A stretch of 60,485 nt of DNA from a virus (lineage: Duplodnaviria; Heunggongvirae; Uroviricota; Caudoviricetes), in IMG/VR virus record IMGVR_UViG_2671181056_000013, positions 1 through 60,485 of that record; one strand, written 5' to 3'. The notes under the pieces were generated by a model. It saw only the letters and a program-made list of their open reading frames with translations, did no database searches and was not told where the DNA came from. The translations under genes and the position numbers were made by a program. Below are positions 5,222 through 25,780 of this stretch, piece by piece (within the stretch, counting starts at the first letter, position 1; the number at the start of each line of letters is the position of its first letter).

Positions 5222-5253
5222 CGTTCCTTTGTCTGGTGCTATGTACCGATCAG

Positions 5254-5300
5254 TTGCACTGAGTGAGCTTCTTTCATGTATACTGTGTAAATGAACAGTA
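5254..5300 (+). promoter_or_regulatory. sigma70-like promoter (TTGCAC ... TATACT) overlapped by a LexA/SOS box TACTGTGTAAATGAACAGTA
   Basis: CTGT-N8-ACAG palindrome at 5281-5300, matching the LexA consensus at 16 of 20 positions by my alignment, about 17 nt upstream of the umuD'-like start. Confidence 0.65.
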
Positions 5301-5316
5301 TTGAGGGCAAAACGCT

Positions 5317-5706
5317 ATGGGCTTCCCTTCTCCTGCGGCGGATTATGCTGAGAGCCGTATTTCTCTTGATCAGCAGATAATTAGACATCCTTCAGCGACC
5401 TACTTCATGAGAGCAGCTGATAGTCATCATCGTGAGGGAATATTACAGGGTGCATTGCTGGTGGTTGATTCCTCACTTACCCCGGTTGATGGTTCTCTGC
5501 TTGTATGCGCTCTGGATGGGGAATATCGCGTAAAAAGATACCGGAAGTCTCCACGTCAGCATCTGGAGGATTTAAGAACCGGTAAGAAGGAAGCATTGCC
5601 AAAGGATGACGATGGATGCACGGGCAGCAATGCCGTGTTTGGTGTGATCACTCACATTATCAACGACGCAAGAAGTGGCGAGTTTGATGATTGTCCTGTG
5701 ATGTAG
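5317..5706 (+). CDS. UmuD'-like S24 peptidase-family protein, natively starting at the position equivalent to UmuD Gly25
   Basis: MGFPSPAADY...HPSATYF...VFGVITHII aligns with E. coli UmuD from the Cys24/Gly25 cleavage site onward. Good RBS GAGGG; in-frame TGA at 5302-5304 excludes a longer N-terminus. Confidence 0.8.
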   Translation: MGFPSPAADYAESRISLDQQIIRHPSATYFMRAADSHHREGILQGALLVVDSSLTPVDGSLLVCALDGEYRVKRYRKSPRQHLEDLRTGKKEALPKDDDGCTGSNAVFGVITHIINDARSGEFDDCPVM

Positions 5707-5718
5707 GAGAACTGATTA

Positions 5719-5745
5719 GGCGGTGCAATGCACCGCCTTTTTATC
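5719..5745 (+). terminator. intrinsic terminator (GGCGGTGCA-A-TGCACCGCC plus T-run)
   Basis: Perfect 9-bp stem followed by TTTTT, placed between the convergent umuD'-like gene and mrp copy B. Confidence 0.6.
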
Positions 5746-6844
5746 ACACTGCGCGGAATGCGATTTCGCCAGGTATTACTTCACCTTGCCAATACATTTG
5801 GGCAGCAACGCGATCTGCGAGGTCACGATAAATAGCCGTAAATTCGCTATCTGGACGACTAATAACGGTTGGTGTTCCGTTATCCAGATCTTCACGAAGA
5901 GAGATATGAAGTGGCATTTGGCCTAACAACTGCGTGTTGTATTTCTCGGCCAGTTTCTGTGCTCCACCGGTGCCAAAAATTGGCTCGTGATGACCGCAGT
6001 TACTGCAAATATGCACACTCATGTTTTCAACGATACCCAGTACCGGCACTTCGACTTTTTCGAACATCACAATGCCTTTCTTCGCATCGATCAGCGCGAT
6101 GTCTTGCGGCGTAGTTACCACAACCGCACCAGTTACAGGAATGTTCTGCGCCAGCGTCAATTGAATATCACCAGTGCCCGGTGGCATATCGAGAACGAGA
6201 TAGTCCAGATCAGGCCACAGTGTTTCCTGCAACATCTGCATCAGCGCCTTGCTCGCCATCGGTCCACGCCACACCATTGCATTGTCATCGGTGACCAGAT
6301 AACCAATAGAGTTGGTTGCCAGGCCATGAGACATGATAGGTGCCATGTGAGTACCGTCCGGTGAGGTTGGACGTTGGTTTTCCGCGCCCAGCATGGTTGG
6401 AATTGATGGACCATAGATATCGGCATCCAAAATACCAACTTTCGCACCTTCAGCAGCCAAAGCCAGTGCCAAGTTTACTGCTGTGGAGGATTTACCCACG
6501 CCGCCCTTGCCTGAGCTGACGGCGATAATGTTCTTAACGCCATTAATGCCTGGTTGGTTTTTGACGCGCTTAAGCGTGGCAATGTTGTACGACAGCTTCC
6601 AGTCAATAGCCTTTGCGCCAGTGATACGGAGCAGATCACCACTACATTGCTCTTTCAGGTCTTCAAAAGGCTTATTCCACACGAAAGGCATGATTAGTTC
6701 GACATGCAGTGTGTCATCCATCAACGCAACATGGTGTAACGCTTTAAGCGTAGTCAAGTTGTGTTTCAGGGTTGGGTGCTGAAAATTAGCCAGCGTACCG
6801 GCTACCATTGCTCTCAGGGCATCCGGCGATTTGGACTCGCTCAT
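5744..6844 (-). CDS. mrp: Mrp/ApbC, divergent copy B
   Basis: 366 aa with the same motifs as copy 1, but many synonymous and some non-synonymous differences; its flanking non-coding DNA is unrelated to copy 1. Confidence 0.85.
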   Translation of the reverse strand: MSESKSPDALRAMVAGTLANFQHPTLKHNLTTLKALHHVALMDDTLHVELIMPFVWNKPFEDLKEQCSGDLLRITGAKAIDWKLSYNIATLKRVKNQPGINGVKNIIAVSSGKGGVGKSSTAVNLALALAAEGAKVGILDADIYGPSIPTMLGAENQRPTSPDGTHMAPIMSHGLATNSIGYLVTDDNAMVWRGPMASKALMQMLQETLWPDLDYLVLDMPPGTGDIQLTLAQNIPVTGAVVVTTPQDIALIDAKKGIVMFEKVEVPVLGIVENMSVHICSNCGHHEPIFGTGGAQKLAEKYNTQLLGQMPLHISLREDLDNGTPTVISRPDSEFTAIYRDLADRVAAQMYWQGEVIPGEIAFRAV

Positions 6845-7001
6845 CCCGTCTCCTTTATTTTAATTTGCGCAATTGTCGCCTTGTAGTGTACTCCAGCTAC
6901 GACATTTAATCATTTATGAGAAATGCTGTTATCACATGGCAGACATAAGGCCATTTTGTTACTATCAAGCCCCTTTTCACTACAAAGAAGTAATGCCTAC
7001 T

Positions 7002-8837
7002 ATGACCCAAGTCGCGAAGAAAATTCTGGTGACGTGCGCGCTGCCGTACGCTAACGGCTCAATCCACCTCGGCCATATGCTGGAGCACATCCAGGCTGAT
7101 GTCTGGGTTCGTTACCAGCGAATGCGCGGCCACGAGGTTAATTTCATCTGTGCCGACGATGCCCACGGTACGCCAATCATGCTGAAAGCACAGCAGCTTG
7201 GTATCACACCGGAACAGATGATTGGCGAAATGAGTCAGGAACATCAGACTGATTTCGCAGGCTTTAACATCAGCTATGACAACTATCACTCGACGCACAG
7301 CGAAGAGAACCGTCAGTTGTCCGAGCTTATCTACTCTCGCCTGAAAGAAAACGGTTTTATTAAAAACCGCACCATCTCACAGCTGTACGATCCGGAAAAA
7401 TGCATGTTCCTGCCGGACCGTTTTGTAAAAGGCACCTGCCCGAAATGTAAATCCCCGGATCAATACGGCGATAACTGCGAAGTCTGCGGCGCGACCTACA
7501 GCCCGACTGAACTGATCGAGCCGAAATCGGTGGTTTCTGGCGCTACGCCGGTAATGCGTGATTCTGAACACTTCTTCTTTGATCTGCCCTCTTTCAGCGA
7601 AATGTTGCAGGCATGGACCCGCAGCGGTGCGTTGCAGGAGCAGGTGGCAAATAAAATGCAGGAGTGGTTTGAATCCGGCCTGCAACAGTGGGATATCTCC
7701 CGCGACGCGCCATACTTTGGTTTTGAAATTCCGAACGCGCCGGGCAAATATTTCTACGTCTGGCTGGACGCACCGATTGGCTACATGGGTTCTTTCAAGA
7801 ATCTGTGCGACAAGCGCAGCGACAGCGTAAGCTTCGATGAATACTGGAAGAAAGACTCCACCGCCGAGCTGTACCACTTCATCGGTAAAGATATTGTTTA
7901 CTTCCACAGCCTGTTCTGGCCTGCCATGCTGGAAGGCAGCAACTTCCGCAAGCCGACCAACCTGTTTGTTCATGGCTATGTGACGGTGAACGGCGCAAAG
8001 ATGTCCAAGTCTCGCGGCACCTTTATTAAAGCCAGCACCTGGCTGAATCATTTTGACGCTGACAGCCTGCGTTACTACTACACTGCGAAACTCTCTTCGC
8101 GCATTGATGATATCGATCTCAACCTGGAGGATTTCGTTCAGCGTGTGAATGCCGATATCGTGAACAAAGTGGTTAACCTGGCCTCTCGTAATGCGGGCTT
8201 TATCAACAAGCGTTTTGACGGCGTGCTGGCAAGCGAACTGGCTGACCCGCAGTTGTACAAAACCTTCACTGATGCCGCTGAAGTGATTGGTGAAGCGTGG
8301 GAAAGCCGCGAATTTGGTAAAGCAGTGCGCGAAATCATGGCGCTGGCTGATCTGGCTAACCGCTATGTCGACGAGCAGGCTCCGTGGGTGGTGGCAAAAC
8401 AGGAAGGCCGCGATGCCGACCTGCAGGCAATTTGCTCAATGGGCATAAACCTGTTCCGCGTGCTGATGACTTACCTGAAGCCGGTACTGCCGAAACTGAC
8501 CGAGCGCGCAGAAGCATTCCTCAATACAGAACTGACCTGGGATGGTATCCAGCAACCGCTGCTGGGCCACAAAGTGAATCCGTTCAAAGCGCTGTATAAC
8601 CGCATCGATATGAAGCAGGTTGAAGCACTGGTGGAAGCGTCTAAAGAAGAAGTGAAAGCAGCTGCCGCGCCAGTTACTGGCCCACTGGCAGATGATCCGA
8701 TTCAGGAAACCATCACCTTTGACGACTTCGCAAAAGTTGACCTGCGCGTGGCGCTGATCGAAAACGCAGAGTTTGTTGAAGGTTCTGACAAACTGCTGCG
8801 CCTGATGCGGTGTATGAAGAATAACCAGAATGGTTAA
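7002..8837 (+). CDS. metG: methionyl-tRNA synthetase copy B, truncated after about codon 601 and read through into 10 junction codons
   Basis: Near-identical to the other metG copies except scattered SNPs. Junction at 8805/8806 joins metG to sequence equal to 2524 onward. The ORF-track N-terminal extension (6873-6992) is treated as artefact. Confidence 0.8.
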
Positions 8838-8843
8838 TAGGCG

Positions 8844-9953
8844 TTAGACCGCGCGGAAGGAAATCTCGCCTGGAATGACTTCACCCTGCCAGTAGAGCTG
8901 AGCTGCAACGCGGTCAGCCAGCTGGCGGTAGATAGCGGTAAATTCGCTCTCCGGACGGCTGATAACCGTTGGCGTGCCTTTATCGAGATCCTCACGTAAG
9001 GAGATGTGTAACGGCATCTGCCCCAGCAGCTGTGTGTGGTATTTTTCAGCCAGTTTCTCTGCACCACCGGTACCGAAAATCGGTTCATGGTGACCACAGT
9101 TACTGCAAATATGCACACTCATGTTCTCGACAATACCAAGCACCGGAACCTCGACTTTCTCGAACATCACAATGCCTTTTTTCGCATCGATCAAAGCGAT
9201 GTCCTGCGGGGTGGTGACCACGACTGCACCAGTTACTGGAATGTTTTGCGCCAGCGTCAATTGAATGTCACCGGTGCCTGGCGGCATATCAAGCACCAGA
9301 TAGTCGAGATCCGGCCACAAGGTTTCCTGCAACATCTGCATTAACGCCTTGCTCGCCATCGGTCCACGCCACACCATCGCATTGTCGTCAGTGACCAGAT
9401 AACCAATTGAATTGGTTGCCAGGCCATGAGACATAATCGGTGCCATATGGGTACCGTCCGGCGAAGTTGGACGCTGATTTTCTGCGCCCAGCATGGTGGG
9501 AATTGATGGGCCGTAGATATCGGCGTCCAGAATGCCGACTTTCGCCCCTTCCGCCGCCAGTGCCAGCGCCAGGTTTACCGCCGTGGAGGATTTACCCACG
9601 CCGCCTTTACCGGAACTGACCGCAATGATGTTCTTCACACCATTAATACCCGGCTGATTCTTCACGCGTTTTAAGGTGGCGATATTGTGCGACAGTTTCC
9701 AGTCGATAGCTTTCGCCCCGGTGATACGCAGCAGTTCGGCGCTACATTGCTCTTTTAACTCTTCAAACGCGCTATGCCAGACGAATGGCATAACCAGTTC
9801 CACATGCAACGTGTCGTCCATCCAGGCGACATGGTGCAACGCGTTCAGCGTGGTGAGGTTATGCTTCAGGGTTGGGTGCTGAAAATTGGCCAGTGTCCCG
9901 GCGACCATTGCGCGCAAGGCTTCTGGTGATTTGGCCTGGGATTGTTCGTTCAT
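8844..9953 (-). CDS. mrp: Mrp/ApbC, copy 2 (identical to copy 1)
   Basis: Translation is identical to 2562-3701; the DNA repeat runs from 8806, offset 6282 from copy 1. Confidence 0.9.
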   Translation of the reverse strand: MNEQSQAKSPEALRAMVAGTLANFQHPTLKHNLTTLNALHHVAWMDDTLHVELVMPFVWHSAFEELKEQCSAELLRITGAKAIDWKLSHNIATLKRVKNQPGINGVKNIIAVSSGKGGVGKSSTAVNLALALAAEGAKVGILDADIYGPSIPTMLGAENQRPTSPDGTHMAPIMSHGLATNSIGYLVTDDNAMVWRGPMASKALMQMLQETLWPDLDYLVLDMPPGTGDIQLTLAQNIPVTGAVVVTTPQDIALIDAKKGIVMFEKVEVPVLGIVENMSVHICSNCGHHEPIFGTGGAEKLAEKYHTQLLGQMPLHISLREDLDKGTPTVISRPESEFTAIYRQLADRVAAQLYWQGEVIPGEISFRAV

Positions 9954-10084
9954 CCCGACTCCTTTTTTGTATAGATAAACCATCAGCTGATAGTTTACCT
10001 GAAGAATATAGAGAAGTACTTACTTAACATTTTCCCATTTGGTACTATCTAACCCCTTTTCACTATTAAGAAGTAATGCCTACT

Positions 10085-12118
10085 ATGACTCAAGTCGCGA
10101 AGAAAATTCTGGTGACGTGCGCACTGCCGTACGCTAACGGCTCAATCCACCTCGGCCATATGCTGGAGCACATCCAGGCTGATGTCTGGGTCCGTTACCA
10201 GCGAATGCGCGGCCACGAGGTCAACTTCATCTGCGCCGACGATGCCCACGGTACACCGATCATGCTGAAAGCTCAGCAGCTTGGTATCACCCCGGAGCAG
10301 ATGATTGGCGAAATGAGTCAGGAGCATCAGACTGATTTCGCAGGCTTTAACATCAGCTATGACAACTATCACTCGACGCACAGCGAAGAGAACCGCCAGT
10401 TGTCAGAACTTATCTACTCTCGCCTGAAAGAGAACGGTTTTATTAAAAACCGCACCATCTCTCAGCTGTACGATCCGGAAAAAGGCATGTTCCTGCCGGA
10501 CCGTTTTGTGAAAGGCACCTGCCCGAAATGTAAATCCCCGGATCAATACGGCGATAACTGCGAAGTCTGCGGCGCGACCTACAGCCCGACTGAATTGATC
10601 GAGCCGAAATCGGTGGTTTCTGGCGCTACGCCGGTAATGCGTGATTCTGAACACTTCTTCTTTGATCTGCCCTCTTTCAGCGAAATGTTGCAGGCATGGA
10701 CCCGCAGCGGTGCGTTGCAGGAGCAGGTGGCAAATAAAATGCAGGAGTGGTTTGAATCCGGCCTGCAACAGTGGGATATCTCCCGCGACGCGCCATACTT
10801 TGGTTTTGAAATTCCGAACGCGCCGGGCAAATATTTCTACGTCTGGCTGGACGCACCGATTGGCTACATGGGTTCTTTCAAGAATCTGTGCGACAAGCGC
10901 AGCGACAGCGTAAGCTTCGATGAATACTGGAAGAAAGACTCCACCGCCGAGCTGTACCACTTCATCGGTAAAGATATTGTTTACTTCCACAGCCTGTTCT
11001 GGCCTGCCATGCTGGAAGGCAGCAACTTCCGCAAGCCGACCAACCTGTTTGTTCATGGCTATGTGACGGTGAACGGCGCAAAGATGTCCAAGTCTCGCGG
11101 CACCTTTATTAAAGCCAGCACCTGGCTGAATCATTTTGACGCTGACAGCCTGCGTTACTACTACACTGCGAAACTCTCTTCGCGCATTGATGATATCGAT
11201 CTCAACCTGGAGGATTTCGTTCAGCGTGTGAATGCCGATATCGTGAACAAAGTGGTTAACCTGGCCTCTCGTAATGCGGGCTTTATCAACAAGCGTTTTG
11301 ACGGCGTGCTGACAAGCGAACTGGCTGACCCGCAACTGTACAAAACCTTTACTGATGCCGCTGAAGTGATTGGCGAAGCATGGGAAAGCCGCGAATTTGG
11401 TAAAGCTATCCGTGAAATCATGGCATTGGCTGACCTGGCTAATCGCTATGTCGATGAACAGGCTCCGTGGGTGGTGGCGAAGCAGGAAGGTCGCGATGCA
11501 GATCTGCAGGCGATTTGCTCTATGGGCATTAACCTGTTCCGCGTGCTGATGACGTACCTGAAACCGGTACTGCCGAAACTGACTGAACGTGCAGAAGCAT
11601 TCCTGAATACAGAACTGACCTGGGATGGTATCCAGCAACCGCTTCTGGGCCATAAAGTGAATCCGTTCAAGGCACTGTATAACCGTATCGATATGAAACA
11701 GGTGGAAGCACTGGTGGAAGCATCCAAAGAAGAAGTGAAAGCCACAGCTGCACCGGTAACTGGCCCACTGGCTGACGAACCGATTCAGGAAACCATCACC
11801 TTTGACGACTTCGCCAAAGTTGACCTGCGTGTGGCGCTGATTGAAAACGCGGAGTTTGTCGAAGGTTCTGACAAACTGCTTCGCCTGACGCTGGATCTCG
11901 GTGGTGAAAAGCGTAATGTCTTCTCAGGCATCCGTTCCGCTTATCCAGATCCACAGGCACTGATTGGTCGTCACACCATTATGGTGGCTAACCTGGCACC
12001 ACGTAAAATGCGCTTCGGTATCTCTGAAGGCATGGTGATGGCTGCCGGTCCTGGCGGGAAAGATATCTTCCTGTTAAGCCCGGATGCTGGTGCTAAACCT
12101 GGCCACCAGGTTAAGTAA
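10085..12118 (+). CDS. metG: methionyl-tRNA synthetase, full length (677 aa)
   Basis: Complete ORF including the C-terminal tRNA-binding domain. The 3' third differs at many sites from copies 1 and B. Confidence 0.9.
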
Positions 12119-12899: not shown

Positions 12900-13700
12900 T
12901 ATCAATAGGTTATGGTTGTTTATACCAATAAGAAAACAACTAAATAACAGATCAACGAAACATCAACGCTTTCTCCCGATTTGGTCTAAAAAATTGACGT
13001 TATCACACATCACTTCTTATACCCGTAATTCTACGCAGCAGATAGCGCCACAGCGTCCAAATTTCACCACAGACGACTCAACACACTACCAACAAAAACA
13101 CACGCTCAAAATCGCTCCCGTTGCGTTACACAACCATATAAACAACTTATTTTCAGGCATAACAAAACAACCAAATAACACATATGCCATTACCCAAAAC
13201 AACCAACCTCTTTATGGCAGGCTACCGAAAAGACCCACCTCTTCTCCCCAGGCTACCGGACAACCAACCTAACTTTCACAGGCAATCCGAAAACATTCAT
13301 ACGCGCGATACCCACGACACGCCATTACCCAAACAGCGAAGAAACACCTGAACCGCTGAAACCCTAACGAAGCCTGTAACCGCAAGGTTTCTCTCAATCC
13401 CAAAAGACACGAAACATAACAATCACGGGAAACGCCATTACCCAATACACGAATAACTACAAAAGCCTTCACACACTCCAGACAAACAACTCAAACACAA
13501 TAACGAAAGCAATCGCCCACCTGCCATTACTCCATACACGGAGAAGAACAATCACCAAAACGACGAGAACACCCCCATAGAAGAACCACCGCAAAACTAA
13601 CGAAACCACATACACCGACAGAGAAAACAACACACCCAATTCACCAACAGAAATAGTCGCCGTATAGAACATTCTGGAAGGAGTGAGCATTAACGCCTAT
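12900..13700. repeat. G-poor, CA-rich non-coding tract with dispersed GCCATTACCCA and CAGGCTACCG...CCCACCT repeats
   Basis: Top strand is almost devoid of G for about 800 bp. Four GCCATTAC(C/T)C copies near 13186, 13321, 13433, 13523; two CAGGCTACCG copies at 13217-13273. The only ORF translates to low-complexity sequence. Confidence 0.6.
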
Positions 13701-13854
13701 AGAGAGGTTGAGACAGATAAAACACAACATGTATAGCGAAGAAGCCAGGTATGTATAAGTGGAGAGGGAAGGAGGGGGGTCGCCTCCTTTTTCGTATTTA
13801 TTCAACTCCTGATTTTATCCCCCGTAACACCCCCTACGGTCAGCCTTCGGTCCA

Positions 13855-13992
13855 TACAGGGAAAAGGTTGCATCCAGCTACAGAAACGGCTGGGTTGCCT
13901 TCGGGGGAACGGCTGGGGATTTTCAGGGAAACGGTCGAGTTGCCTGTGTGGATTTCGGGAAAAGGCTCGATGCCGGTTCTGGAACGGCGGCG
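13855..13992. repeat. iteron-like direct repeats (GGGAAAMGG family, about 6 copies at 21-32 bp spacing), set 1
   Basis: CAGGGAAAAGG, CAGAAACGGC, CGGGGGAACGGC, CAGGGAAACGG, TCGGGAAAAGGC, CTGGAACGGCGG in series; no convincing ORF. Confidence 0.55.
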
Positions 13993-14370
13993 TACCGGTA
14001 TAGCGAGAGAGAGAGTTGCAGCTACCCACCTGTAATGTGCGGGAAGAAGAGAGGCGCTCACGTGCAGGCTGACTTGCTTACCGCTGGATTCCCTCTGAAT
14101 GCCAGATACAGCGTAATTGTGCCAGACAGCCAGCGGGTCACAATCGATTTCAGTAGGTTTTCGGGGAGAGGATTATTCTACCCACCAGCCCCGCGGCGCG
14201 CGTAGAGCAGAATATCGTAAATACTGGCTCTCGTGTCGTTCCCGGATATTCACTGCCCAGCCTGGCTTTCCCGACATAAAATCCTTTTTCGCCTTTATCT
14301 TATTGCGATAATAACACCAACAAGTAAACAGCATATTTAGACGTTATAGAAACGAAGTGAGGATGAAGAG

Positions 14371-14589
14371 ATGATTAAGATGCCTGTGACGGTTGAGGTG
14401 TGGGGCGTGGATTCCCTGGCTGAGTGTCTGGATGCAGTGGGGCCGGAGTTGTACCGCAAGTTGTGGTCGTTCGTCCCGGCAGAAGGGGAATCGCCCAAAG
14501 GGAAGGATATCTGGCACCTGCTGAGTGAAGATGAAAAGCGGGAGCTGGTGGGCGCGGTACACAGCGAGTTCCCGGACGACCAAGATTAA
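14371..14589 (+). CDS. hypothetical acidic small protein (72 aa)
   Basis: ORF with GAGGA RBS, followed by a terminator. Confidence 0.5.
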   Translation: MIKMPVTVEVWGVDSLAECLDAVGPELYRKLWSFVPAEGESPKGKDIWHLLSEDEKRELVGAVHSEFPDDQD

Positions 14590-14595
14590 GAGTGA

Positions 14596-14618
14596 GGCCA
14601 CCAGCACGGTGGCTTTTG
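14596..14618 (+). terminator. intrinsic terminator (GCCACC-AGCAC-GGTGGC plus TTTT)
   Basis: Hairpin plus T-run immediately after the stop at 14589. Confidence 0.6.
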
Positions 14619-14727
14619 TCGCTATTAACCTCGGGGCAGCGCAGCACCGTAACGATATACTTTGTGGCCGTTTTCTTACTGGTATTGTTTACGTAATTCA
14701 GAAAACAACATGTTTAAGGATTGCTTT

Positions 14728-15057
14728 ATGTTTGCAAATATCGACATCAACCAAATTAAGAAATTGACTCAAAAAGAGTTTGACCAGTTTTATGAGCTGG
14801 AAGGTTGGTCTTCCACTCTGATTAATTCAAGATGGGTGCTGGAGCTGATGACTCGTGATGACGCACCTGCTTTGATGATTTGCGACATGGGTGAAGATGC
14901 TGACTTTATGGATATGAGCGAATTTTGTGTGGACACATACAACCGCAGCCAGAAGTACTACTTCACATGCGATAGCGAAAATGACGTGATTTCTAAGGTC
15001 TATCTTCACCTCGTCCAGCATTGGGACGTTCAGGACTTCCTTGCGATATTCGCGTAA
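14728..15057 (+). CDS. hypothetical early protein (about 110 aa)
   Basis: Start chosen at the ATG after an AAGGA RBS, downstream of the palindromic motif at 14701; the ORF track begins at 14662. Confidence 0.55.
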   Translation: MFANIDINQIKKLTQKEFDQFYELEGWSSTLINSRWVLELMTRDDAPALMICDMGEDADFMDMSEFCVDTYNRSQKYYFTCDSENDVISKVYLHLVQHWDVQDFLAIFA

Positions 15058-15211
15058 GCCCAACCAAAGCCAGCATTGCTGGCTTAACTTCATCTGTAGC
15101 CGCAGGGAAGAACCTGCATATCGCTCATGCGCCTGATCAATATGCTTTGTAGCCGTTTTCTTACTGGTATTATTTACGCCATTGAGAAAACAAGTTGTTT
15201 ACGGAGTTGTG

Positions 15212-15523
15212 ATGAAAAAATCATTGGTTCTTGGTCTGGACAAAGACCAGAAGAGAAAAGAGAAGCCTGCACTGGTTGCTCAATTAACTTTGCTGGACAT
15301 CGTTGCCAATGGAACCTCTATTCGTCTGTTCCGTGAAACAGCGGTGTCTTTCGATAAAAACACCTTTACTCGTTATGTAATGAATGTTCGTCGCCAGCGT
15401 GGAAAAGGCTGGATGGCATTTCAAAGAATGTGGCCGGAACATCAGCTCGAACTGGCTTTGATGGAAGTTAACCGCGTGGCCCAGCAAGAGATTCAGAGAG
15501 CATCAGTGATGGCAATAGCCTGA
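15212..15523 (+). CDS. hypothetical early protein (about 104 aa)
   Basis: ATG after a GGAG RBS; the 55-bp upstream block is shared with the 14660-14715 region. Confidence 0.55.
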   Translation: MKKSLVLGLDKDQKRKEKPALVAQLTLLDIVANGTSIRLFRETAVSFDKNTFTRYVMNVRRQRGKGWMAFQRMWPEHQLELALMEVNRVAQQEIQRASVMAIA

Positions 15524-15559
15524 TAATGTGCAAGTGGTAATTAGTCGACAGTACGACAG

Positions 15560-15585
15560 CCCCGCCATCCTTACGGGGTTTTTTG
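15560..15585 (+). terminator. intrinsic terminator (CCCCG...CGGGG plus T6)
   Basis: GC hairpin followed by TTTTTT. Confidence 0.7.
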
Positions 15586-15636
15586 TATTGTAAGTACATA
15601 CCTATGTCTATAAAATAGAAAAATAACCAAGACACT

Positions 15637-16044
15637 ATGGAGAGTGATATGAGCGTTAAACGAGAAAACCTGACAGTTGATGTCTACTATGCTTCAGAAA
15701 GCGCCGAAGGTAAGAATGTAGCTAAAATCACCGTCGTTACGTACAACACCGAAACTGGAACTGAAGTTCAGGCAAGTACTATTGTGCGTAAAGGAGATAC
15801 ATCAGGCGGGGAATATGAGGCGCAATATCAGTCCATTTTTGATGCAACGGACCCGTTGTTGTTGAAAATTGAAAGTTACTTCCGTAAGGTGAATAAAGAG
15901 GTGTTTGAAACCATGATGAATATGGTTAACACCGTATTCGCTTCCAGTCTGAACACTAACACTACCTGGATTGGTCAGTATGGTCTGCGCATTACCTCCG
16001 GCATTCCTGCTGACACCTTAATCCCTGAAAGCGTATTCGCTTAA
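15637..16044 (+). CDS. hypothetical early protein (135 aa)
   Basis: ORF with its own upstream AT-rich region and downstream terminator. Confidence 0.6.
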   Translation: MESDMSVKRENLTVDVYYASESAEGKNVAKITVVTYNTETGTEVQASTIVRKGDTSGGEYEAQYQSIFDATDPLLLKIESYFRKVNKEVFETMMNMVNTVFASSLNTNTTWIGQYGLRITSGIPADTLIPESVFA

Positions 16045-16056
16045 TCCTCTTTGAAT

Positions 16057-16080
16057 GGCGCGTAAACCGCGCCATTTTCT
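16057..16080 (+). terminator. intrinsic terminator (GGCGCG-TAAAC-CGCGCC plus T-run)
   Basis: Hairpin and ATTTTCT directly after the stop. Confidence 0.65.
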
Positions 16081-16090
16081 TATGCCCGAT

Positions 16091-16130
16091 AACAATTTGT
16101 TTTCTGCCTTATCTGATTTGTGAAAATGCT
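16091..16130 (+). promoter_or_regulatory. about 40-bp phage promoter-like element, copy 3 of 3
   Basis: AACAATTTGTTTTCTGCCTTATCTGATTTGTGAAAAT is closely similar to the elements at 5183 and 12203. Confidence 0.4.
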
Positions 16131-16162
16131 TTCACTGAAAGCAACTTGATAAGGAAACCATC

Positions 16163-16537
16163 ATGGGACTTGATATCTACATTGAGACGCAACCAAAAAA
16201 CGATCTGAATAACGATGCATCCAGAAAGAAGGTTGCTTACTTCCGTAAGTTCAATGCTCTCTTTGGGTGGATGGAACGCAACGTAGGTGAAGTCAAAAAT
16301 TGTGAGCTTTTAGAATTAACGATGAATGACATTTGTGCTCTGAAAGCTCATTTGATGCACATGAACGAAAGTAACTGCGAAGAGTACTTACCTACCTGTG
16401 AAGGTTTTTTCTTCGGCAGTCAGGAGTACGATGAAGGGTACTGGCATGACGTGGGGGAGTTGAAAAAACTTGTGGAAGAGCTGATTAAGAACCACGACTT
16501 TCACAATAACAGACTGACCTTCTGCGCCTGGTGGTAA
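16163..16537 (+). CDS. hypothetical early protein (124 aa, Cys-rich)
   Basis: ORF with AAGGAAA RBS. Confidence 0.6.
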   Translation: MGLDIYIETQPKNDLNNDASRKKVAYFRKFNALFGWMERNVGEVKNCELLELTMNDICALKAHLMHMNESNCEEYLPTCEGFFFGSQEYDEGYWHDVGELKKLVEELIKNHDFHNNRLTFCAWW

Positions 16538-16539
16538 AT

Positions 16540-16683
16540 ATGGGCGATTTCAAGAAACGCCTGAAGGAAAGAGCCGAGATAGTCAGAAAGCAAAACGCCT
16601 CTTCTGTCATCAGATACGCAAGGCAGTTTAGTCGCAACAACAAATCAGTTGAGGAAAAGATCCTTAGCGTAATCGGTCGATAA
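16540..16683 (+). CDS. hypothetical small basic protein (47 aa), possibly translationally coupled
   Basis: ATG 3 nt after the preceding stop; followed by hairpin AAGGCCACCACTGCTGGTGGCCTT. Not in the ORF track (below its size cut-off). Confidence 0.35.
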   Translation: MGDFKKRLKERAEIVRKQNASSVIRYARQFSRNNKSVEEKILSVIGR

Positions 16684-16732
16684 TTATTAAGGCCACCACT
16701 GCTGGTGGCCTTAAATGACCATCCTGTTTCCC

Positions 16733-16805
16733 GCAGGCTAAAAACACCAACCTCTTACCTCCAGGCAACCGACAAACCCACCTGTTCCCGTCCGGCTACC
16801 GCAAC
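16733..16805. repeat. second cluster of CAGGCTACCG...CCCACCT-family repeats
   Basis: GCAGGCTAAAAACACCAACCTC, CCAGGCAACCGACAAACCCACCTG and CCGGCTACCGCAAC resemble the repeats at 13217-13273. Confidence 0.45.
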
Positions 16806-16887
16806 TTTCCACTTTGACGCCTTATTCGTACAACGATAATTAACGCCAACAAGAAAACAATTTGTTATTTACGATAAGGAATTAATC

Positions 16888-17370
16888 ATGAATTTTATCG
16901 CTACTGTAAACGCACCCGCACATGGCAATATCGCTGTAACGTTCTCTGACATTGAAAAACGAGTACTTGGTGCATGGCGCGACAATGAGACGGTAGAACT
17001 GTCAGCACAAGAAAAATGCATTATTGCACGCGACATCATTGGCAATCGTCGTTACTCGCGGGTATTTGAGAAAGCGTATGTGGTAAATTCTGGATTCGGA
17101 ACGTTCGTCTTTCCGGTGCGCTCCGGGCGATTCTGCCAGTCCAAGCTGATTGAGTTCGCTACGCAGATTTCTGTCTGGATTAAAACTCAATCGTCGTTCA
17201 AATTTTCCGACGATGAAGCAGTATCGCAGGGGATGCGGATCGCCAACAATGCAATTAAATGCAAAAACATTACGTATACCGCTGGCGTTGATACATGGAA
17301 ACTGTTTTGCGCTAACTTTATGCTGAATGTATACGCAAGCAACCGCATCCACATCCTTGATGGCGTGTAA
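16888..17370 (+). CDS. hypothetical early protein (160 aa)
   Basis: ORF with AAGGA RBS, preceded by the palindromic motif at 16853. Confidence 0.6.
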   Translation: MNFIATVNAPAHGNIAVTFSDIEKRVLGAWRDNETVELSAQEKCIIARDIIGNRRYSRVFEKAYVVNSGFGTFVFPVRSGRFCQSKLIEFATQISVWIKTQSSFKFSDDEAVSQGMRIANNAIKCKNITYTAGVDTWKLFCANFMLNVYASNRIHILDGV

Positions 17371-17379
17371 CTGAGAAGA

Positions 17380-17402
17380 GGGCCAGTAACGGCCCTTTCT
17401 CT
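17380..17402 (+). terminator. intrinsic terminator (GGGCC-AGTAAC-GGCCC plus T-run)
   Basis: Hairpin and TTTCTCT 10 nt after the stop. Confidence 0.65.
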
Positions 17403-17417
17403 ATAGCCACCAGATGC

Positions 17418-17580
17418 CGCAGGGAAATTTTCAGAAACGGCGAGGAACGTATTCATGAACCGACGGGGAACGGCCAGGATTTTTTCGGGAAACGGCTGCA
17501 TTCGCCTTTATGTAGAAAAAACATCGGGAAGCTGGTGGAATCCAACCAGCGGTTGTCGGACAGGTGAGCGGGGAAAATTA
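17418..17580. repeat. iteron-like direct repeats (GGGAAAMGG family), set 2
   Basis: CAGGGAAATTTTCAGAAACGG, ACGGGGAACGGC, TCGGGAAACGGC, TCGGGAAGCTGG; closely resembles set 1 including the GATTTT...CGGGAAACGG units. Confidence 0.5.
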
Positions 17581-17962
17581 TGATGACTTTCGTCGCCTGA
17601 GACATCCAGATTTCTTTCGTAGCGTAATCGCATACGTGATTAAGTGGTGTGATTATGTGAAAAATCACGCGCACATAATACGCGAGCGGATACGGAACAA
17701 AACAAAATGCCGATCCGCGCCGACAAATAAACGCGGATCACATAGCAAGACTAAAAGCCAATGATTAACTATGCGCTATAGCGCAATATAACGCGTTTTA
17801 AGCGCGTTAATGTGTTAAGTAATGGGTATGTACTGGCAAGGATATAAAAGCGCGTCTATGGCGTTATTTTGGCGCTTATTTTTATGTTGTTGGAGTGAGT
17901 CAAAGACAATAAAAAACGCGCCATCATTGGCGCGTTATGGTGGGAGTATTGGAAACGAAAAA

Positions 17963-17997
17963 AGCGCCCACTATGGGCGCTATTGTTTTTATTTTTC
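17963..17997 (+). terminator. GC hairpin AGCGCCCA-CTA-TGGGCGCT plus T-run; inverted partner copy at 18458-18478
   Basis: One of several GCGC-rich hairpins in the AT-rich 17760-18000 tract; the same 19-mer recurs as its reverse complement 495 bp away. Confidence 0.55.
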
Positions 17998-18216
17998 TAA
18001 GCGAATATTAAAACCAGCGTTTAAAAATTCTTGAAGCATTAAAGTAACATCTGCTTCATTGATTCCTGCGCGCGCTCTATGTTCTACGTCATTGATGTTT
18101 ATTTTAAACGTTGTTTCATCAACCACTTCAGAACTTAGAGCATATCCAGCTAAACCAGCAATATCATAAACAAGAGTATGATTATTGATATTTACGCCAG
18201 AGATGAAAATAACCAT
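17989..18216 (-). CDS. hypothetical small protein (75 aa)
   Basis: Second ORF of a two-gene minus-strand cassette lying between the inverted GC hairpins; AT-rich. Confidence 0.45.
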   Translation of the reverse strand: MVIFISGVNINNHTLVYDIAGLAGYALSSEVVDETTFKININDVEHRARAGINEADVTLMLQEFLNAGFNIRLEK

Positions 18217-18236
18217 GATTAAGCTCCTTAAAAAAA

Positions 18237-18440
18237 TTAAATAGAATTATGAAGTTTTCCGATTAATGCGCTTAAACGTAAGTATTCACGTTTACGCTTG
18301 CAATCTCGTTTGCTGTTAAGCAAATCAGAAAACGTAAAATTTAATTGGTCGCGTTGCGCGATTAAATCATTGATTAATTCTAGTTTATAAGCGCGATACT
18401 TTGCGCGATATTCCGCGCGGATCTTGTCATAGCTGACCAT
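18237..18440 (-). CDS. hypothetical small basic protein (67 aa, K/R-rich)
   Basis: AAGGAG RBS 9 nt upstream, immediately preceded by the hairpin 18458-18478. Confidence 0.45.
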   Translation of the reverse strand: MVSYDKIRAEYRAKYRAYKLELINDLIAQRDQLNFTFSDLLNSKRDCKRKREYLRLSALIGKLHNSI

Positions 18441-18489
18441 TTTTTAAAGCTCCTTTAAAGCGCCCATAGTGGGCGCTTGATTCCATTAA

Positions 18490-19140
18490 TTACGCTTTGA
18501 AAGCGTCAGCTAGATAATTGTAGAAATCATTCTTGATAAAGCGATATTGCTGTGTACCAGCTTTGGCGCTTCCCATTCCTTTGACTTTCTCAACAAGTCC
18601 GAGACGTTCGCAAAGATTGATTAGCTGGTTAGCTTGAGTATAGCCAGCGTCCAATTTAATTTCACACGCTTTTTTAGCTTCATTCATTAAATCGAAAACA
18701 GCGCCATTCGTGAACGTGTCGATCTCGTCGTTAATCATATCGATTAAAGCGAATACACGAGATCCAGACATATCAGCGACGGAATAAACACATTTTCCAG
18801 CTTTAATTGATTTAACCAGATAAACCAGTTTTTCCAGTGAATAACTATTAGTCATAGCGTCACGAAAAAATACTTCTGGCGCTTGTTTGCTTGCTTTAAT
18901 CGCATAGTAGAAAACAGAGCATAATTTTTCGTCTTCTACAGCGTTTACGACGTTGTTGATGAAGTAAGCAAGTTTAGTGGTCGCAGCTTGCATATTTGCT
19001 TTGTCTGCTTTAGTGTGCGTACCATTTTTATAATGTTCGTTATATGTTTGAGTTGCCAGATCTGCTTTTTCGCGCAGTTCGTCGGATACAATAGATGCAG
19101 CTTCAATGATGGACTTTTTAGAAATGATAATGTTAGCCAT
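18490..19140 (-). CDS. hypothetical protein (216 aa)
   Basis: ORF with a long AT-rich upstream region (19141-19400). Confidence 0.6.
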   Translation of the reverse strand: MANIIISKKSIIEAASIVSDELREKADLATQTYNEHYKNGTHTKADKANMQAATTKLAYFINNVVNAVEDEKLCSVFYYAIKASKQAPEVFFRDAMTNSYSLEKLVYLVKSIKAGKCVYSVADMSGSRVFALIDMINDEIDTFTNGAVFDLMNEAKKACEIKLDAGYTQANQLINLCERLGLVEKVKGMGSAKAGTQQYRFIKNDFYNYLADAFKA

Positions 19141-19437: not shown

Positions 19438-19959
19438 TTAAAACGGAAGGATTCGTTCAACCCAATCGAAGAAAATAAGTATTTTTCTACCGTCTTCCAA
19501 CTTAAGTGTGACTAGACAGGCGTCAACGCCATCTGACGTTCCCTCAATTTCGCGACCGTCTGCCATGTAGACCCTTATAGATTTGCCGTTTTGGTAAGCC
19601 TGACGACATATCTTAAAAAAGTCACGACGTGATGGCTGATTAACCATCTGTTCATTGTTTAGCGTTAGTCGACCTGTGAATGAAGTGTCAACCTCTTCTA
19701 TGCCCGACTCAATTGTGCTAATGCGCTCAAGAGGGAGCCTTATACGATTTGTGTTGCTAAGCGGATCTGGTGTGAGGTTCAGCTTATTTCTTGCGCTCAA
19801 TAGCCCGTAGACATACATGCAAAACACTTGGCCGTCTTCGAGAGTGACTCTTACAGGAAATTTTGCACTCCGCCAGAAGAGCAAGGTACGTTCAGCATGT
19901 TCGTAGTCTCGCGGCCATACTTCAGCCGGTATGCCGTAGGTGATGTCCAATGTTCTCAT
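19438..19959 (-). CDS. hypothetical cytoplasmic protein (173 aa), translationally coupled to the upstream secreted protein
   Basis: ATGA overlap with the 19956-20549 ORF; a hairpin plus T-run terminator at 19396-19424 on the minus strand. Confidence 0.6.
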   Translation of the reverse strand: MRTLDITYGIPAEVWPRDYEHAERTLLFWRSAKFPVRVTLEDGQVFCMYVYGLLSARNKLNLTPDPLSNTNRIRLPLERISTIESGIEEVDTSFTGRLTLNNEQMVNQPSRRDFFKICRQAYQNGKSIRVYMADGREIEGTSDGVDACLVTLKLEDGRKILIFFDWVERILPF

Positions 19960-22635: not shown

Positions 22636-23334
22636 GTGGATTGTAGCAATAAAATGGACGTAAAAATCACGATTTTGCAGGTTGATGTTGCCAACCTTCG
22701 CCCGAATACCTGGAACACCAATTCGGTTGGTGCGCAGAATTTCGAAAAACTGAAAGGTTCTATCGAAAAATTGGGCTTTTTTAAGCCAATTTTGGCTCGT
22801 GAACTTGAAGATGGATTTTTTGAAATCCTCGGCGGCGAACATCGCTGGCGTGCCGCTATTGAGCAAGGAATTTCAACGGTTCCAGTGCTTTCTGTGGGCA
22901 AAATTAGCGATGTCGTAGCTAAACAGATGTCACTGGTGGACAACGAGCGATACGGTGAAGACGACCAAATCGCATTGCAACGCTTCATTGAAGAAATTCA
23001 GTCAGAACTTGACTATCAACTGTCTGAAATCGCCCCGTATGACGACGAAATCTCGATGGTTTTAGCAAAAGAGGCGGCAATCGACCTTGAAGCACTGGAG
23101 GCGTTGTCTCGTGGTAGTGATGAGCCTGTCGATACCGACAAACGAGAGAAAACCGAACGTGTGGGGGCGGAACATCAGACCATGCGCTTCAAAGTAACTT
23201 TCGATGCGTCAGATCGTGTTGCAGAAACCATAAAAAACATCATCAAAGAGCAGGCTATTAACACCGGTAATGAAATGGAGAACGCTGGTGAGGCTCTGGT
23301 GTGGCTGGTCGACTACTACAAGGAGCGTATGTAA
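22636..23334 (+). CDS. ParB/Srx-fold N-terminal-domain protein (ParB-like nuclease domain)
   Basis: GGEHRWRAA motif typical of the ParB N-terminal domain; the true start may be the ATG at 22654. Confidence 0.7.
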   Translation: MDCSNKMDVKITILQVDVANLRPNTWNTNSVGAQNFEKLKGSIEKLGFFKPILARELEDGFFEILGGEHRWRAAIEQGISTVPVLSVGKISDVVAKQMSLVDNERYGEDDQIALQRFIEEIQSELDYQLSEIAPYDDEISMVLAKEAAIDLEALEALSRGSDEPVDTDKREKTERVGAEHQTMRFKVTFDASDRVAETIKNIIKEQAINTGNEMENAGEALVWLVDYYKERM

Positions 23335-24002
23335 TGACCAAAAAGTTTGAAATCGTATATCGCGACCCGGCAGATCTTATTCCCTATGAGATGAATGCCA
23401 AAAAGCATGATGAACAGCAGATCAGAGATCTGGCCGCAGCCATTAAAAAGCGCGGATTTGACCAGCCAATTACGGTCGATAAGAACGACGTAATTATTAC
23501 TGGCCACGGCCGTCGTGAGGCTGCAATTTTTGCTGGACTTGAGCGTGTACCGGTTATTGTTCGCGATGATCTCAGTGATGACGAGGTTCGTGCGAAGCGC
23601 CTTGAAGATAACCGACTTGCCAGCATTGATTACGATGCAATTAAGCTACAGAAAGAGCTTGAGTCGCTTGTTCTGGACGATATCGAGGTTTTCGGCTTCG
23701 AAGAGCGTGAGTTGAATGTTCTCGTTGGCAGTATGACAGAAGAAATGGACACCGACTCGCTAGTTATCGATCTTGGCGAAGAAACTAAACGACAGAAGGA
23801 TGAACACACCGAGATCAGTCGTGAAGTTGCAGCGGAAGAAGTACGTGTTGTCGACGTATTGGGCTTTAAAACGCTTCCTGCTGGCTCTGCCATTGTTGTT
23901 GGTGATTTGCTTGCCCACATGGAAGAAATGACGGGAGAAAGCGGGGTAGACGCATTTGTGGCATATGCGGAGAAAATCTCTTCCGGGGAGATGGCTGCAT
24001 GA
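23334..24002 (+). CDS. second ParB-like N-terminal-domain protein
   Basis: ITGHGRREAA motif; start overlaps the previous stop (TAATG). Confidence 0.7.
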   Translation: MTKKFEIVYRDPADLIPYEMNAKKHDEQQIRDLAAAIKKRGFDQPITVDKNDVIITGHGRREAAIFAGLERVPVIVRDDLSDDEVRAKRLEDNRLASIDYDAIKLQKELESLVLDDIEVFGFEERELNVLVGSMTEEMDTDSLVIDLGEETKRQKDEHTEISREVAAEEVRVVDVLGFKTLPAGSAIVVGDLLAHMEEMTGESGVDAFVAYAEKISSGEMAA

Positions 24003-24637
24003 GCAAATACATCATCAACGTATCGTTTCAGACACGCGTAAATAAAACCACGCGCACGTTGGAAATCGCTGAGTCGTTCGGGCTTGGCCTGGACGAAAAA
24101 GAGTGGACGCTTTACGACAATCTGGAGCTGGAAGTGAAGCAGGGCGATGTGGTGTACATCACCGGCCAATCCGGTTCCGGCAAATCCGTTGTGCTGCGCG
24201 AGTTGCAACGACAGATGAAGGATGAAGGGCTGTCTGTAGCCTCCATCGATGATTTTACCTTCGATAATGAGGTTAACGTCATCGATCAGTTGGGCAAAAC
24301 GACCAGTGATGCGCTTGGGTTGTTATCTATGGCTGGTCTGAACGATGCATATCTGTTTGTTCGCAAGCCTTCTGAAATGTCAGACGGCCAGAAATATCGT
24401 CTCAAGATTGCCAAACTGATTGAGTCAGGCGCTAAAGTATGGGCTGCTGACGAGTTCGGCGCTGTTCTAGACCGTGTAACCGCTCAGGTTGTGGCGTCTA
24501 ACCTCCAGCGTGCCGCTCGAAAGGTTGGTGCGACGGTAATGGTGGCGACGACTCACGAAGACCTGAAGAACGCGCTGCGCCCGGATATGCAGATCACCAA
24601 GCACTACAAAGAACGCGTGAAGGTGGAATATGCCTGA
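23999..24637 (+). CDS. ABC-type ATPase (no transmembrane domain)
   Basis: Walker A GQSGSGKS, signature-like MSDGQKYRL, Walker B AADEFGA and H-loop TTHE. Confidence 0.7.
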   Translation: MSKYIINVSFQTRVNKTTRTLEIAESFGLGLDEKEWTLYDNLELEVKQGDVVYITGQSGSGKSVVLRELQRQMKDEGLSVASIDDFTFDNEVNVIDQLGKTTSDALGLLSMAGLNDAYLFVRKPSEMSDGQKYRLKIAKLIESGAKVWAADEFGAVLDRVTAQVVASNLQRAARKVGATVMVATTHEDLKNALRPDMQITKHYKERVKVEYA

Positions 24638-24884
24638 TTTGAAGATCGTAGAGCTGAAGCCATCGAAAGAGACTGATAACAACAACGTGGAAGTCATCCG
24701 CCTGCTGGAAGAAGCACTTCAGCACGCCAGAGAAGGAAAAAGCCAGAGCCTGGCGCTGTTGATGATCAACAACGACGGCAGTGTTCTTGATTGCTGGCAT
24801 AACGGCGGGCGCCCGTATGTCATGGTAGGGGCGATGGAGTCTCTTCGCCTGGATTTCATCAATGCCAATATCGAGCGCAGGTGA
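24630..24884 (+). CDS. hypothetical protein (84 aa)
   Basis: ORF overlapping its neighbours by 8 and 4 nt, suggesting operon membership. Confidence 0.5.
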   Translation: MPDLKIVELKPSKETDNNNVEVIRLLEEALQHAREGKSQSLALLMINNDGSVLDCWHNGGRPYVMVGAMESLRLDFINANIERR

Positions 24885-25780
24885 TCGACATGGCAGATAT
24901 CATCATCAAACGCTACCGCCCTGAAGAGTTTCCGCGTCATCTGGACTTTCTGGAGCGAATGACTGTCACAAAGGGAACTGTAGAGGACTGGCACGCTCTT
25001 AAGTCGCTTCACTACAAAACAGACGGCAAACCTTTCGCGCCAACTTACTATCGCTGCGAACTTGATGACCGTCTGGTGGGCGTCGTGGTTATGGCTTACC
25101 CGAAACTACTGTTGGCACCTCGCCACCGCATGTTTCCTAAGTTGAAACCAACCACTAATACCACCGTAGCTAACCAGTACTGGGGTCGGTACGTGAATAA
25201 CAACTTTGCGGTGATCAGTCGCTCAGTTGTGGATACTCAGTATCGTGGCGTAGGCGTCTCTTATCGAATGATTAACCTGGTTAGCAGGATGCATGACCGG
25301 CCAATCATTGAGATCCAGTCCTCGATGAGCAAATACAATCCCTTCGCCATGAAAGCAGGGTTTAAGTTCATCCGCCCTGAGCGACCGAAGAGCTATGAAA
25401 GTGCACTGCGTGTATTCCAGCGCCATTTCCGTTCCGACCCTGGTGATAACGAGGCGATCGTCAAAGAGTTGTTCGCAATGAGCGAGTCTCGTCGTCGCCG
25501 TGCACTGCGTGATCTGGTGGCGGACTACCACAAGAACAGTTCCCTGGCAAAAGCTGGGCGGAATCGTGGCACGACGATTCAGGACATTGCCGACAGTCTG
25601 GTGGACGAGGCCAGCATTGTGAAGCTGCTCAAGGACATTCACAACCTGAGCTTTACGTCTCCGTTGTATGGTGTGTACCGAAACCCTGACTTTGGTCGTC
25701 GACTGCCTGACACGCTGCCACTGCTGGCATTCGACAAACAACCTTTGGATAAACCGTTAGAAATTGCTTTACCGGCATAA
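24881..25780 (+). CDS. hypothetical protein (299 aa) with a possible GNAT-like acyltransferase core
   Basis: Q-Y-R-G-V-G-V resembles the GNAT motif A (Q/RxxGxG/A); assignment is tentative. Confidence 0.4.
   Translation: MIDMADIIIKRYRPEEFPRHLDFLERMTVTKGTVEDWHALKSLHYKTDGKPFAPTYYRCELDDRLVGVVVMAYPKLLLAPRHRMFPKLKPTTNTTVANQYWGRYVNNNFAVISRSVVDTQYRGVGVSYRMINLVSRMHDRPIIEIQSSMSKYNPFAMKAGFKFIRPERPKSYESALRVFQRHFRSDPGDNEAIVKELFAMSESRRRRALRDLVADYHKNSSLAKAGRNRGTTIQDIADSLVDEASIVKLLKDIHNLSFTSPLYGVYRNPDFGRRLPDTLPLLAFDKQPLDKPLEIALPA

Follow-up and report, generated by a model that had tools for sequence, protein, structure and literature searches.

The replicon of P1 (oriR-repA-incA) and replicons of the RepFIB type carry two sets of iterons, and the satellite phage-plasmid P4 has two iteron-bearing cis regions, ori and crr, which lie approximately 4.5 kb apart and are bound by the alpha protein, with oriL and oriR of SPP1 as a comparable arrangement. 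Centromere-binding proteins of the ribbon-helix-helix (RHH) type recognize direct repeats of 7, 11, or 20 bp, often in two clusters (R1 parC, pB171 parC1/parC2, pSK41, omega heptads). In the phage-plasmid N15 the centromere sites are dispersed away from the par operon, and partition specificities have diversified among the par systems of P1, P7, and pMT1. Two arrays of iteron-like direct repeats were examined here in the virus record IMGVR_UViG_2671181056_000013, a stretch of 60,485 nucleotides (the window, 60.5 kb) from an E. coli phage-plasmid of the SSU5/pHCM2/pMT1 type. Both arrays are genuine, phased, deeply conserved, and unannotated iteron-like sites that are predicted to bind protein. 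The region containing them (13700-17700) is 98.9% identical to Escherichia phage CMS-2020a (CP054387), 98% to PhiR41_1, and 94% to Cyrano (pLF82), all SSU5-type phage-plasmids of approximately 108 kb. On Cyrano coordinates the window runs from 89.3 kb across the record end to 34.6 kb.

Array 1 (13859-13987, plus strand; local GC content approximately 57%) is composed of six GGGAAACGG-type units, namely GGGAAAAGG (13859-13867), CAGAAACGG (13881-13889), GGGGAACGG (13904-13912), GGGAAACGG (13926-13934), GGGAAAAGG (13957-13965), and CTGGAACGG (13979-13987), all of which contain the core G[AG]AA[AC]GG and follow one another at 22, 23, 22, 31, and 22 bp. Array 2 (17422-17495, plus strand) contains three strict units, CAGAAACGG (17432-17440), GGGGAACGG (17465-17473), and GGGAAACGG (17487-17495), together with the degenerate units GGGAAAT (17422-17428) and GAACCGA (17457-17463), on an 11/22-bp grid. 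The degenerate units appear in relatives as GGGAA and GGAACCGA; since relatives preserve both, the cores of array 2 are spaced at 11, 22, 11, and 22 bp. An earlier note on this DNA had placed the second set at 17418-17580, which holds as far as 17495; the tail from approximately 17500 to 17580 is without convincing units and offers only the weak look-alikes GGGAAGC at 17525 and GGGGAAAA at 17570.

The core motif G[AG]AA[AC]GG occurs 27 times in the window when both strands are counted, and nine of these occurrences, all on the plus strand, fall within the two arrays. The largest cluster (6 in 140 bp) exceeded the maximum of 4 observed in 1000 Markov-1 simulated windows, and the two array segments gave 9 matches in 442 nt compared to a mean of 0.48 and a maximum of 4 in 5000 simulations of local composition. 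Motif clusters across the complete Cyrano genome were confined to these two loci. A pattern scan of genome contigs for three phased cores yielded, among the matches listed, only chance ones in unrelated taxa. The two sets of phased direct repeats described in the earlier note are therefore real, with clustering far above that of the simulations. A stretch of 31 nt is common to both arrays at 81% identity, which establishes that the shared flanking sequence claimed for the two sets is likewise genuine. Information outside the 7-mer core was modest (G at -1 and -2, C at +7, and GGR at +9 to +11), and the effective repeat unit is approximately (TTTTC)R-GGGAAACGG-C-Y-GG.

Conservation was examined in 76 viral contigs with related loci, anchored on a 160-aa protein whose gene ends before array 2 (67-100% protein identity). 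Both clusters were present on the anchor strand in nearly all of the 76 loci and on the opposite strand in none. In these relatives array 2 comes after the anchor stop codon, with array 1 at 1.4-4 kb in the upstream direction. The cores are preserved and the spacers have diverged; the copy number of array 1 ranges from 3 to 6 through whole-unit indels, and the last two units of array 2 are nearly invariant across genera together with the spacer between them. SSU5, at approximately 72% identity across this region, matches array 1 in all six units, at spacings of 22, 22-23, 22, 31, and 22 bp, and core spacing by whole helical turns is preserved among the E. coli, Salmonella, and Klebsiella elements. 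Array 2 was found in 767 PLSDB plasmids from Klebsiella, Escherichia, Enterobacter, Yersinia, Salmonella, Citrobacter, and Cronobacter, including 55 Yersinia records (pMT1) and pHCM2 of S. Typhi. In pMT1 of Y. pestis 91001, array 1 has been lost via an IS1541-associated rearrangement and array 2 is intact. A lack of conservation in related phages, named beforehand as grounds for rejection, is contradicted by the 76 contigs and 767 plasmids.

The GGGAA(A)CG core is retained even in three distant relatives, which are ordered here by their homologue of P216, a 216-aa protein encoded beyond array 2. In L208 (53% identical) both arrays are present and their core is unchanged. The GC-rich L213 (33% identical) also has both arrays, with more copies, some of them 7 bp apart (GGGAAACGGGAAACGGGGAAAGG), and the AT-rich L214 (31% identical) carries GGGAAAGTTTTCCC and GGGAACGTTTTCCC at the corresponding position. 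No description of these repeats was found in the literature on SSU5, pHCM2, or pMT1 with iterons, centromere, or origin.

Neither array encodes a convincing protein, as the earlier note had also judged. Open reading frames (ORFs) of 73-94 aa overlie array 1, and hypothetical proteins are annotated there in some public records. These ORFs differ in frame and product among the window, PhiR41_1, Cyrano, SSU5, and pJN2-26, and no open frame is kept across relatives over array 1 as in a protein-coding tandem repeat. Furthermore, array 1 of PhiR41_1 is one 23-bp unit shorter than that of the window, another relative is 55 bp shorter, and the Klebsiella elements have four units. The 94-aa ORF over array 1 starts within a terminator hairpin and had no PHROG match. 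Most public records annotate nothing beneath array 2. The ORFs over array 1 are not credible and both arrays are non-coding, so that a location of the repeats inside a translated gene, which had been named as a potential objection, was not found.

The repeats could instead act in RNA, for example as a purine-rich, GGA-bearing protein sponge or as an antitermination signal on read-through transcripts. Such a role is in keeping with the position of every unit on the strand of the flanking genes directly after terminators, and with the presence of GGA in most units at a spacing of approximately 22 nt. However, Rfam gave no relevant match at the gathering threshold for the whole window and nothing relevant at an E-value threshold for 13200-18500, with only unrelated sub-threshold matches elsewhere. 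RNAalifold consensus structures from 14-16 diverse sequences of approximately 230 nt were weak (-14.3 and -12.1 kcal/mol for the two arrays), with negligible covariation terms (-1.0 and -0.6 kcal/mol), and a terminator and promoter scan framed neither array with a dedicated promoter and terminator. These results, together with the conserved spacing by whole helical turns, favor a protein bound to one face of the DNA duplex and make an RNA role very unlikely.

The position of the arrays relative to transcription signals was also considered. An intrinsic-terminator-like hairpin (13766-13793, plus strand), whose position is conserved in the alignment, stands approximately 65 nt upstream of array 1 at the end of a C+A-rich stretch. 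Past the stop codon of the 160-aa gene, approximately 20 nt before array 2, is a second hairpin, GGGCC-AGTAAC-GGCCC followed by TTTCTCT (17374-17402, plus strand). It shows a compensatory change, being GGGCC/GGCCC in the window and GGGGC/GCCCC in SSU5. This second hairpin was read from the sequence and was not called by the consensus terminator scan, which did call the first. Terminators at 17908-17995 stand between array 2 and a converging minus-strand operon. The arrays overlap no promoter-like site, the nearest downstream promoter-like element being approximately 300 bp from array 1. The hairpins beside the arrays and the lack of promoter-like overlap place both arrays in transcriptionally insulated DNA, a setting in which origins, centromeres, barriers, and other structural cis-sites are found more typically than operators.

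Both flanks of the array pair have features of their own. From array 2 to the minus-strand operon runs a conserved non-coding spacer (17496-18236) with hairpin terminators on both strands; its part from 17580 to 18236 is rich in GCGC-type hairpins, with terminator-like sites on both strands at 17668-17740, 17852-17876, and 17915-17981. Rfam matches to 17580-18236 were sub-threshold only, and this segment may encode minus-strand small RNAs. On the other side, approximately 850 nt (12900-13760) are strongly C+A-rich on the plus strand, with GC skew reaching -0.56 and AT skew +0.62. This stretch begins past an operator-bearing promoter-like site (12932), ends at the 13766-13793 hairpin before array 1, and is kept at greater length by Klebsiella relatives and by L213. 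A long non-coding RNA is one possible interpretation and a loading region for Rho or Hfq another; a 118-aa ORF annotated within the stretch in public records is doubtful.

Two arrays plus a ParA system had been taken in the earlier note as a sign of plasmid-like replication control, with the arrays as iterons of a replication initiator that mark an origin, an incompatibility determinant, or a copy-control (handcuffing) locus. Two sets of direct repeats at a spacing of two helical turns do resemble such iterons, and the P1 oriR-repA-incA and RepFIB replicons are also two-set. Both arrays have the phased direct repeats (approximately 17-22 bp) of an iteron replicon, and neither is adjacent to a cognate Rep gene with matching iterons. 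The window contains no RepA gene and no RepA-type iterons. In Cyrano, RepA is encoded approximately 33 kb from the arrays and is flanked on both sides by its own 21-bp-spaced CTCTATAGTGGATA iterons, which are unrelated in sequence to GGGAAACGG and alongside which DnaA-box-like TGTGGATAA sequences and GATC-rich runs are visible. A Klebsiella relative of another replicon type (rep_cluster_2469) keeps the GGGAAACGG units at both places. No AT-rich unwinding element adjoins either array (local GC content 51-57%), and there is no DnaA-box cluster, with one relaxed box 160 bp away and 3 boxes in the window compared to 6.8 expected. The cumulative GC skew of the whole Cyrano genome rises near-monotonically following gene orientation and marks no origin, and pMT1 replicates stably without array 1. 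The arrays are not part of the RepA replicon, since they persist across replicon types and the RepA iterons are elsewhere and unrelated; a role as initiator iterons is largely refuted and now highly improbable. Neither the search for a Rep-like initiator nor the GC-skew analysis that had been proposed thus supported plasmid replication control.

The ParA system also proved not to be beside the arrays. The nearby genes that resemble parA (2562-3701, 5744-6844, and 8844-9983) were rejected as partition ATPases, as they match PF10609 (NUBPL/Mrp) with an E-value of approximately 1e-102. Each of these genes for Mrp/ApbC iron-sulfur carrier ATPases is paired with metG (methionyl-tRNA synthetase), which we take to resemble the chromosomal metG-mrp gene pair. 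The mrp(apbC)-metG pair is present at 2524-12118 in three partly divergent copies, with 2524-5172 matching 8806-11454 at 99.5% and 6951-8805 matching 10035-11888 at 95.6%. The mrp copies of the window are 83% identical mutually and one metG copy is truncated (475 aa), and Cyrano and PhiR41_1 have one mrp-metG copy each. The three copies may stem from segmental amplification or belong to a recombinant mosaic.

The most likely binder of the arrays would be P216 (phrog_1513; 18490-19140, minus strand), which is predicted to consist of an N-terminal helical bundle and a C-terminal winged-helix domain. By its modeled structure P216 has a winged-helix fold, and its gene is syntenic with array 2, being present in all 74 of the related loci that reach that far and converging on array 2 from 0.8-1.1 kb in all except two truncated matches. 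P216 identity is 83-100% in all loci but one (74%), while the 160-aa protein drops to 67%. The family is tiny, with 23 representatives among 1.8 billion proteins, and P216 had no Pfam, NCBIfam, or PDB sequence match. Five residues of the predicted recognition helix (D164, T168, Q169, Q172, and L176) are invariant down to 31% overall identity. This invariance parallels the survival of the repeat core in L208, L213, and L214 (53%, 33%, and 31% identity, respectively) and supports P216 as the binder. In nearly every relative examined the P216 gene follows that of a UvsW-like DEAD/DEAH helicase in the same orientation, usually with a gene for an FljA-like protein in between.

In the model that we tentatively prefer, both arrays would be cis-acting DNA platforms on which several copies of one element-encoded protein sit side by side on GGGAAACGG(C) cores. 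Given the whole-turn core spacing of the E. coli, Salmonella, and Klebsiella lineages, approximately 75-130 bp of DNA would be covered by the protein on a single face. The N-terminal helical bundle of P216 could mediate oligomerization as well as pairing of the arrays, and pairing of two arrays in the same orientation 3.5 kb apart would place the intervening early-gene block in a loop. The complex of P216 and the arrays would act in phage-mode DNA metabolism, as an initiator-loading, origin-type, or fork or transcription barrier locus and not in RepA copy control; this placement draws on the minus-strand run that opens with the UvsW-like helicase and on independence from replicon type. We infer the binding of P216 to the arrays, the pairing of the arrays, and the process served, and regard P216-coated arrays, possibly paired across the early-gene block, as a possible explanation. 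The wider proposal that the arrays and the P216 family form a new iteron module of SSU5/pHCM2/pMT1-type phage-plasmids, separate from RepA/ParA and either working with the UvsW-like helicase, as a lytic origin or fork barrier, or forming a looped, chromatin-like island switch, is conceivable and somewhat doubtful.

Several observations weigh against assigning the arrays to P216. The case is circumstantial, consisting of adjacency and fold, and P216 is without a characterized homologue to guide function. A rearranged Serratia element encodes a P216 homologue (63% identity), but no array was found within 6 kb of it. Cores packed at 7 bp in L213 leave too little room for winged-helix dimers and bear more resemblance to RHH heptad arrays. 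An origin role is weakened by the lack of an AT-rich unwinding element or DnaA-box cluster at the arrays. Finally, P216 (CYRAN_113) is missing from the Cyrano table of lysogen genes transcribed above local background, in which the gene for an RHH protein of the element (CYRAN_29) is present (PMC9928086). The absence of P216 from this table fits a lytic role and equally fits use of the arrays by the RHH protein in lysogeny.

The RHH protein (119 aa, 55366-55725) forms the true partition-type pair of the element (54698-55725, plus strand) with a small ParA of 222 aa (54698-55366), approximately 37 kb from the arrays. The arrays could be the centromere or centromeres of this pair, dispersed from the par operon like the N15 sites, with RHH dimers coating the repeats and ParA segregating the complex. 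Consistent with this, the par operon has no repeat array of its own upstream or downstream in the window, and likewise in Serratia; both loci are arrays of short direct repeats, and the 11/22-bp grid and the 7-bp packing in L213 fit the RHH repeat pattern. The arm/beta-strand segment of the RHH protein (PVRPQGRPTRGK..IKSRTMS) is conserved in a 52%-identical homologue whose element keeps the same array core. The plasmid sets of the RHH protein (797) and of array 2 (767) are almost the same, with a near-identical genus profile, and the RHH gene is transcribed above background in the Cyrano lysogen (PMC9928086). The RHH protein had no PDB sequence match.

Against a centromere, the arrays lie 37-41 kb from the par operon and neither is at, or overlaps, its promoter, where a palindrome, AAACAAnTTGTTT, offers the RHH protein an alternative target; the same palindrome is found at no fewer than 10 other promoters. 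Partition specificities usually diversify, as in P1, P7, and pMT1, and yet the core does not vary between lineages. Furthermore, array 2 is intact in 55 Yersinia pMT1 records, and the host list of the RHH protein lacks Yersinia (at most one such record), although array 2 in these plasmids could be a recent relic. A centromere function is judged less probable than P216-coated arrays, to which it is nevertheless a serious alternative.

A further alternative concerns the genes that the arrays bracket. Seven small genes (14371-17370, plus strand) lie between the arrays, several with their own promoter-like element bearing a palindromic operator, and the gene content and length of this block vary among relatives. 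The arrays could be a regulatory boundary or silencer, bridged by a repressor-like protein (P216 or another) that silences or times the intervening early or accessory genes. In every two-array lineage examined the arrays bracket small genes with their own promoter-like elements, though the genes vary, and both arrays share one orientation. The repeated promoter element contains GCCGTTTTC, the complement of the near-iteron GAAAACGGC, a likeness that could be due to chance, and MarR/ArsR-type repressors make up many of the fold neighbors of P216. Against this, the arrays overlap no promoter-like site and the promoters already have a separate palindromic operator, and P216 is absent from the Cyrano lysogen transcription table (PMC9928086) at the stage when silencing would be needed. 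A boundary function is unlikely on this evidence. The weight left beyond the P216, centromere, and boundary models falls to RNA-level roles, RepA control, packaging, and others.

The palindromic operator, (G)AAAACAAnTTGTTTT(C), directly precedes many genes (among them parA, terS, and that for a DnaB-like helicase), with sites at 1885, 5182, 12203, 12254, 14703, 15188, 16091, 16855, 26173/26200, 54650, and 57886. It lies within a repeated promoter-like element of approximately 77 nt at 14644-14720, 15129-15205, and 16812-16866. Its distribution looks like that of a dispersed operator of one global regulator, similar to the C1 sites of P1 or the KorB sites of RK2.

A lytic origin at the DnaB-like helicase and primase module was also considered and rejected, as no iterons are present there and only a 53-bp AT-rich palindrome was found. 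This near-perfect palindrome (56965-57017) lies in a divergent intergenic region upstream of genes for a 249-aa protein, the DnaB-like helicase, and the primase, and offers another candidate site for the lytic origin or for bidirectional control. The 249-aa protein had no Pfam or NCBIfam match.

Other neighbors of the arrays are as follows. The 160-aa gene used as anchor (phrog_1641; 16888-17370, plus strand) has its stop codon directly before array 2 in nearly all relatives; its product had no Pfam or NCBIfam match, and an AF2 model (pLDDT 85) gave no fold match. The FljA-like protein (19438-19959, minus strand) matches PF03614 (repressor of phase-1 flagellin) with an E-value of 1e-68 and has counterparts in most of the relatives inspected, pMT1 among them. 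Two tandem proteins with ParB N-terminal domains and then two ABC-type ATPases are encoded at 22636-25780, just ahead of the terminase genes and divergently from the helicase gene, a synteny held even in L213 and L214 that is not a classical partition operon. In the rearranged Serratia relative L212 (5548-6000) the homologue of the 160-aa anchor is truncated and the P216 homologue is inverted relative to the helicase; this natural rearrangement could be used for comparison.

SSU5-type phage-plasmids are frequent in clinical Enterobacterales, and elements of this type carry resistance genes. No description of their lytic origin or partition site was found in searchable records and papers, and the conserved array pair and its candidate binder provide a concrete and inexpensive target for locating one or the other. 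The arrays may also explain control of the variable early-gene island and, if they are the ParA centromere, would define the incompatibility behavior of the family. They represent a clean lead, open to testing, in an element family of wide clinical occurrence more than a surprising new principle.

Compared to described systems, the arrays resemble P1 oriR-repA-incA and RepFIB in having two same-orientation sets of direct repeats approximately 20 bp apart with, presumably, a winged-helix-type binder. In contrast to these replicons, the arrays here flank no initiator gene, have no DnaA boxes or AT-rich region, do not share the sequence of the RepA iterons, and are independent of replicon type; the RepA replicon of this phage-plasmid family is itself of the P1/RepFIB type. 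TubR-tubC of pBtoxis and Clostridium phage c-st, in which the centromere protein TubR coats iteron arrays, likewise has a winged-helix protein encoded beside iterons. Unlike TubZRC, however, P216 has an extra N-terminal helical domain of 120 aa and its fold match is generic for winged helices. The gene-context and family searches made revealed no TubZ-like GTPase, the neighbors being the DEAD/DEAH helicase, the FljA-like protein, and small proteins without a tubulin/FtsZ match.

The short direct-repeat clusters of R1 parC, pB171 parC1/parC2, pSK41, and the pSM19035 omega heptads, which lie on an 11-, 20-, or 7-bp grid and often in two blocks, are similar to the arrays, and this element, like the RHH centromere systems, encodes a small ParA and an RHH protein; however, the centromeres of those systems adjoin or overlap the par promoter, whereas 37-41 kb separates the arrays from the par operon here. 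P4 ori/crr and SPP1 oriL/oriR resemble the arrays in that a phage genome carries one kind of repeat in two separate sets, but here no primase-helicase or G38P-type initiator is linked, and the genes for the DnaB-like helicase and primase are approximately 40 kb off without such repeats. Lastly, the CI-bridged OL and OR of lambda are, like the arrays, two clusters of phased sites a few kb apart that flank phage regulatory or accessory genes, although the lambda operators are palindromic and overlap promoters, whereas the arrays of this phage-plasmid are direct repeats placed away from promoters.

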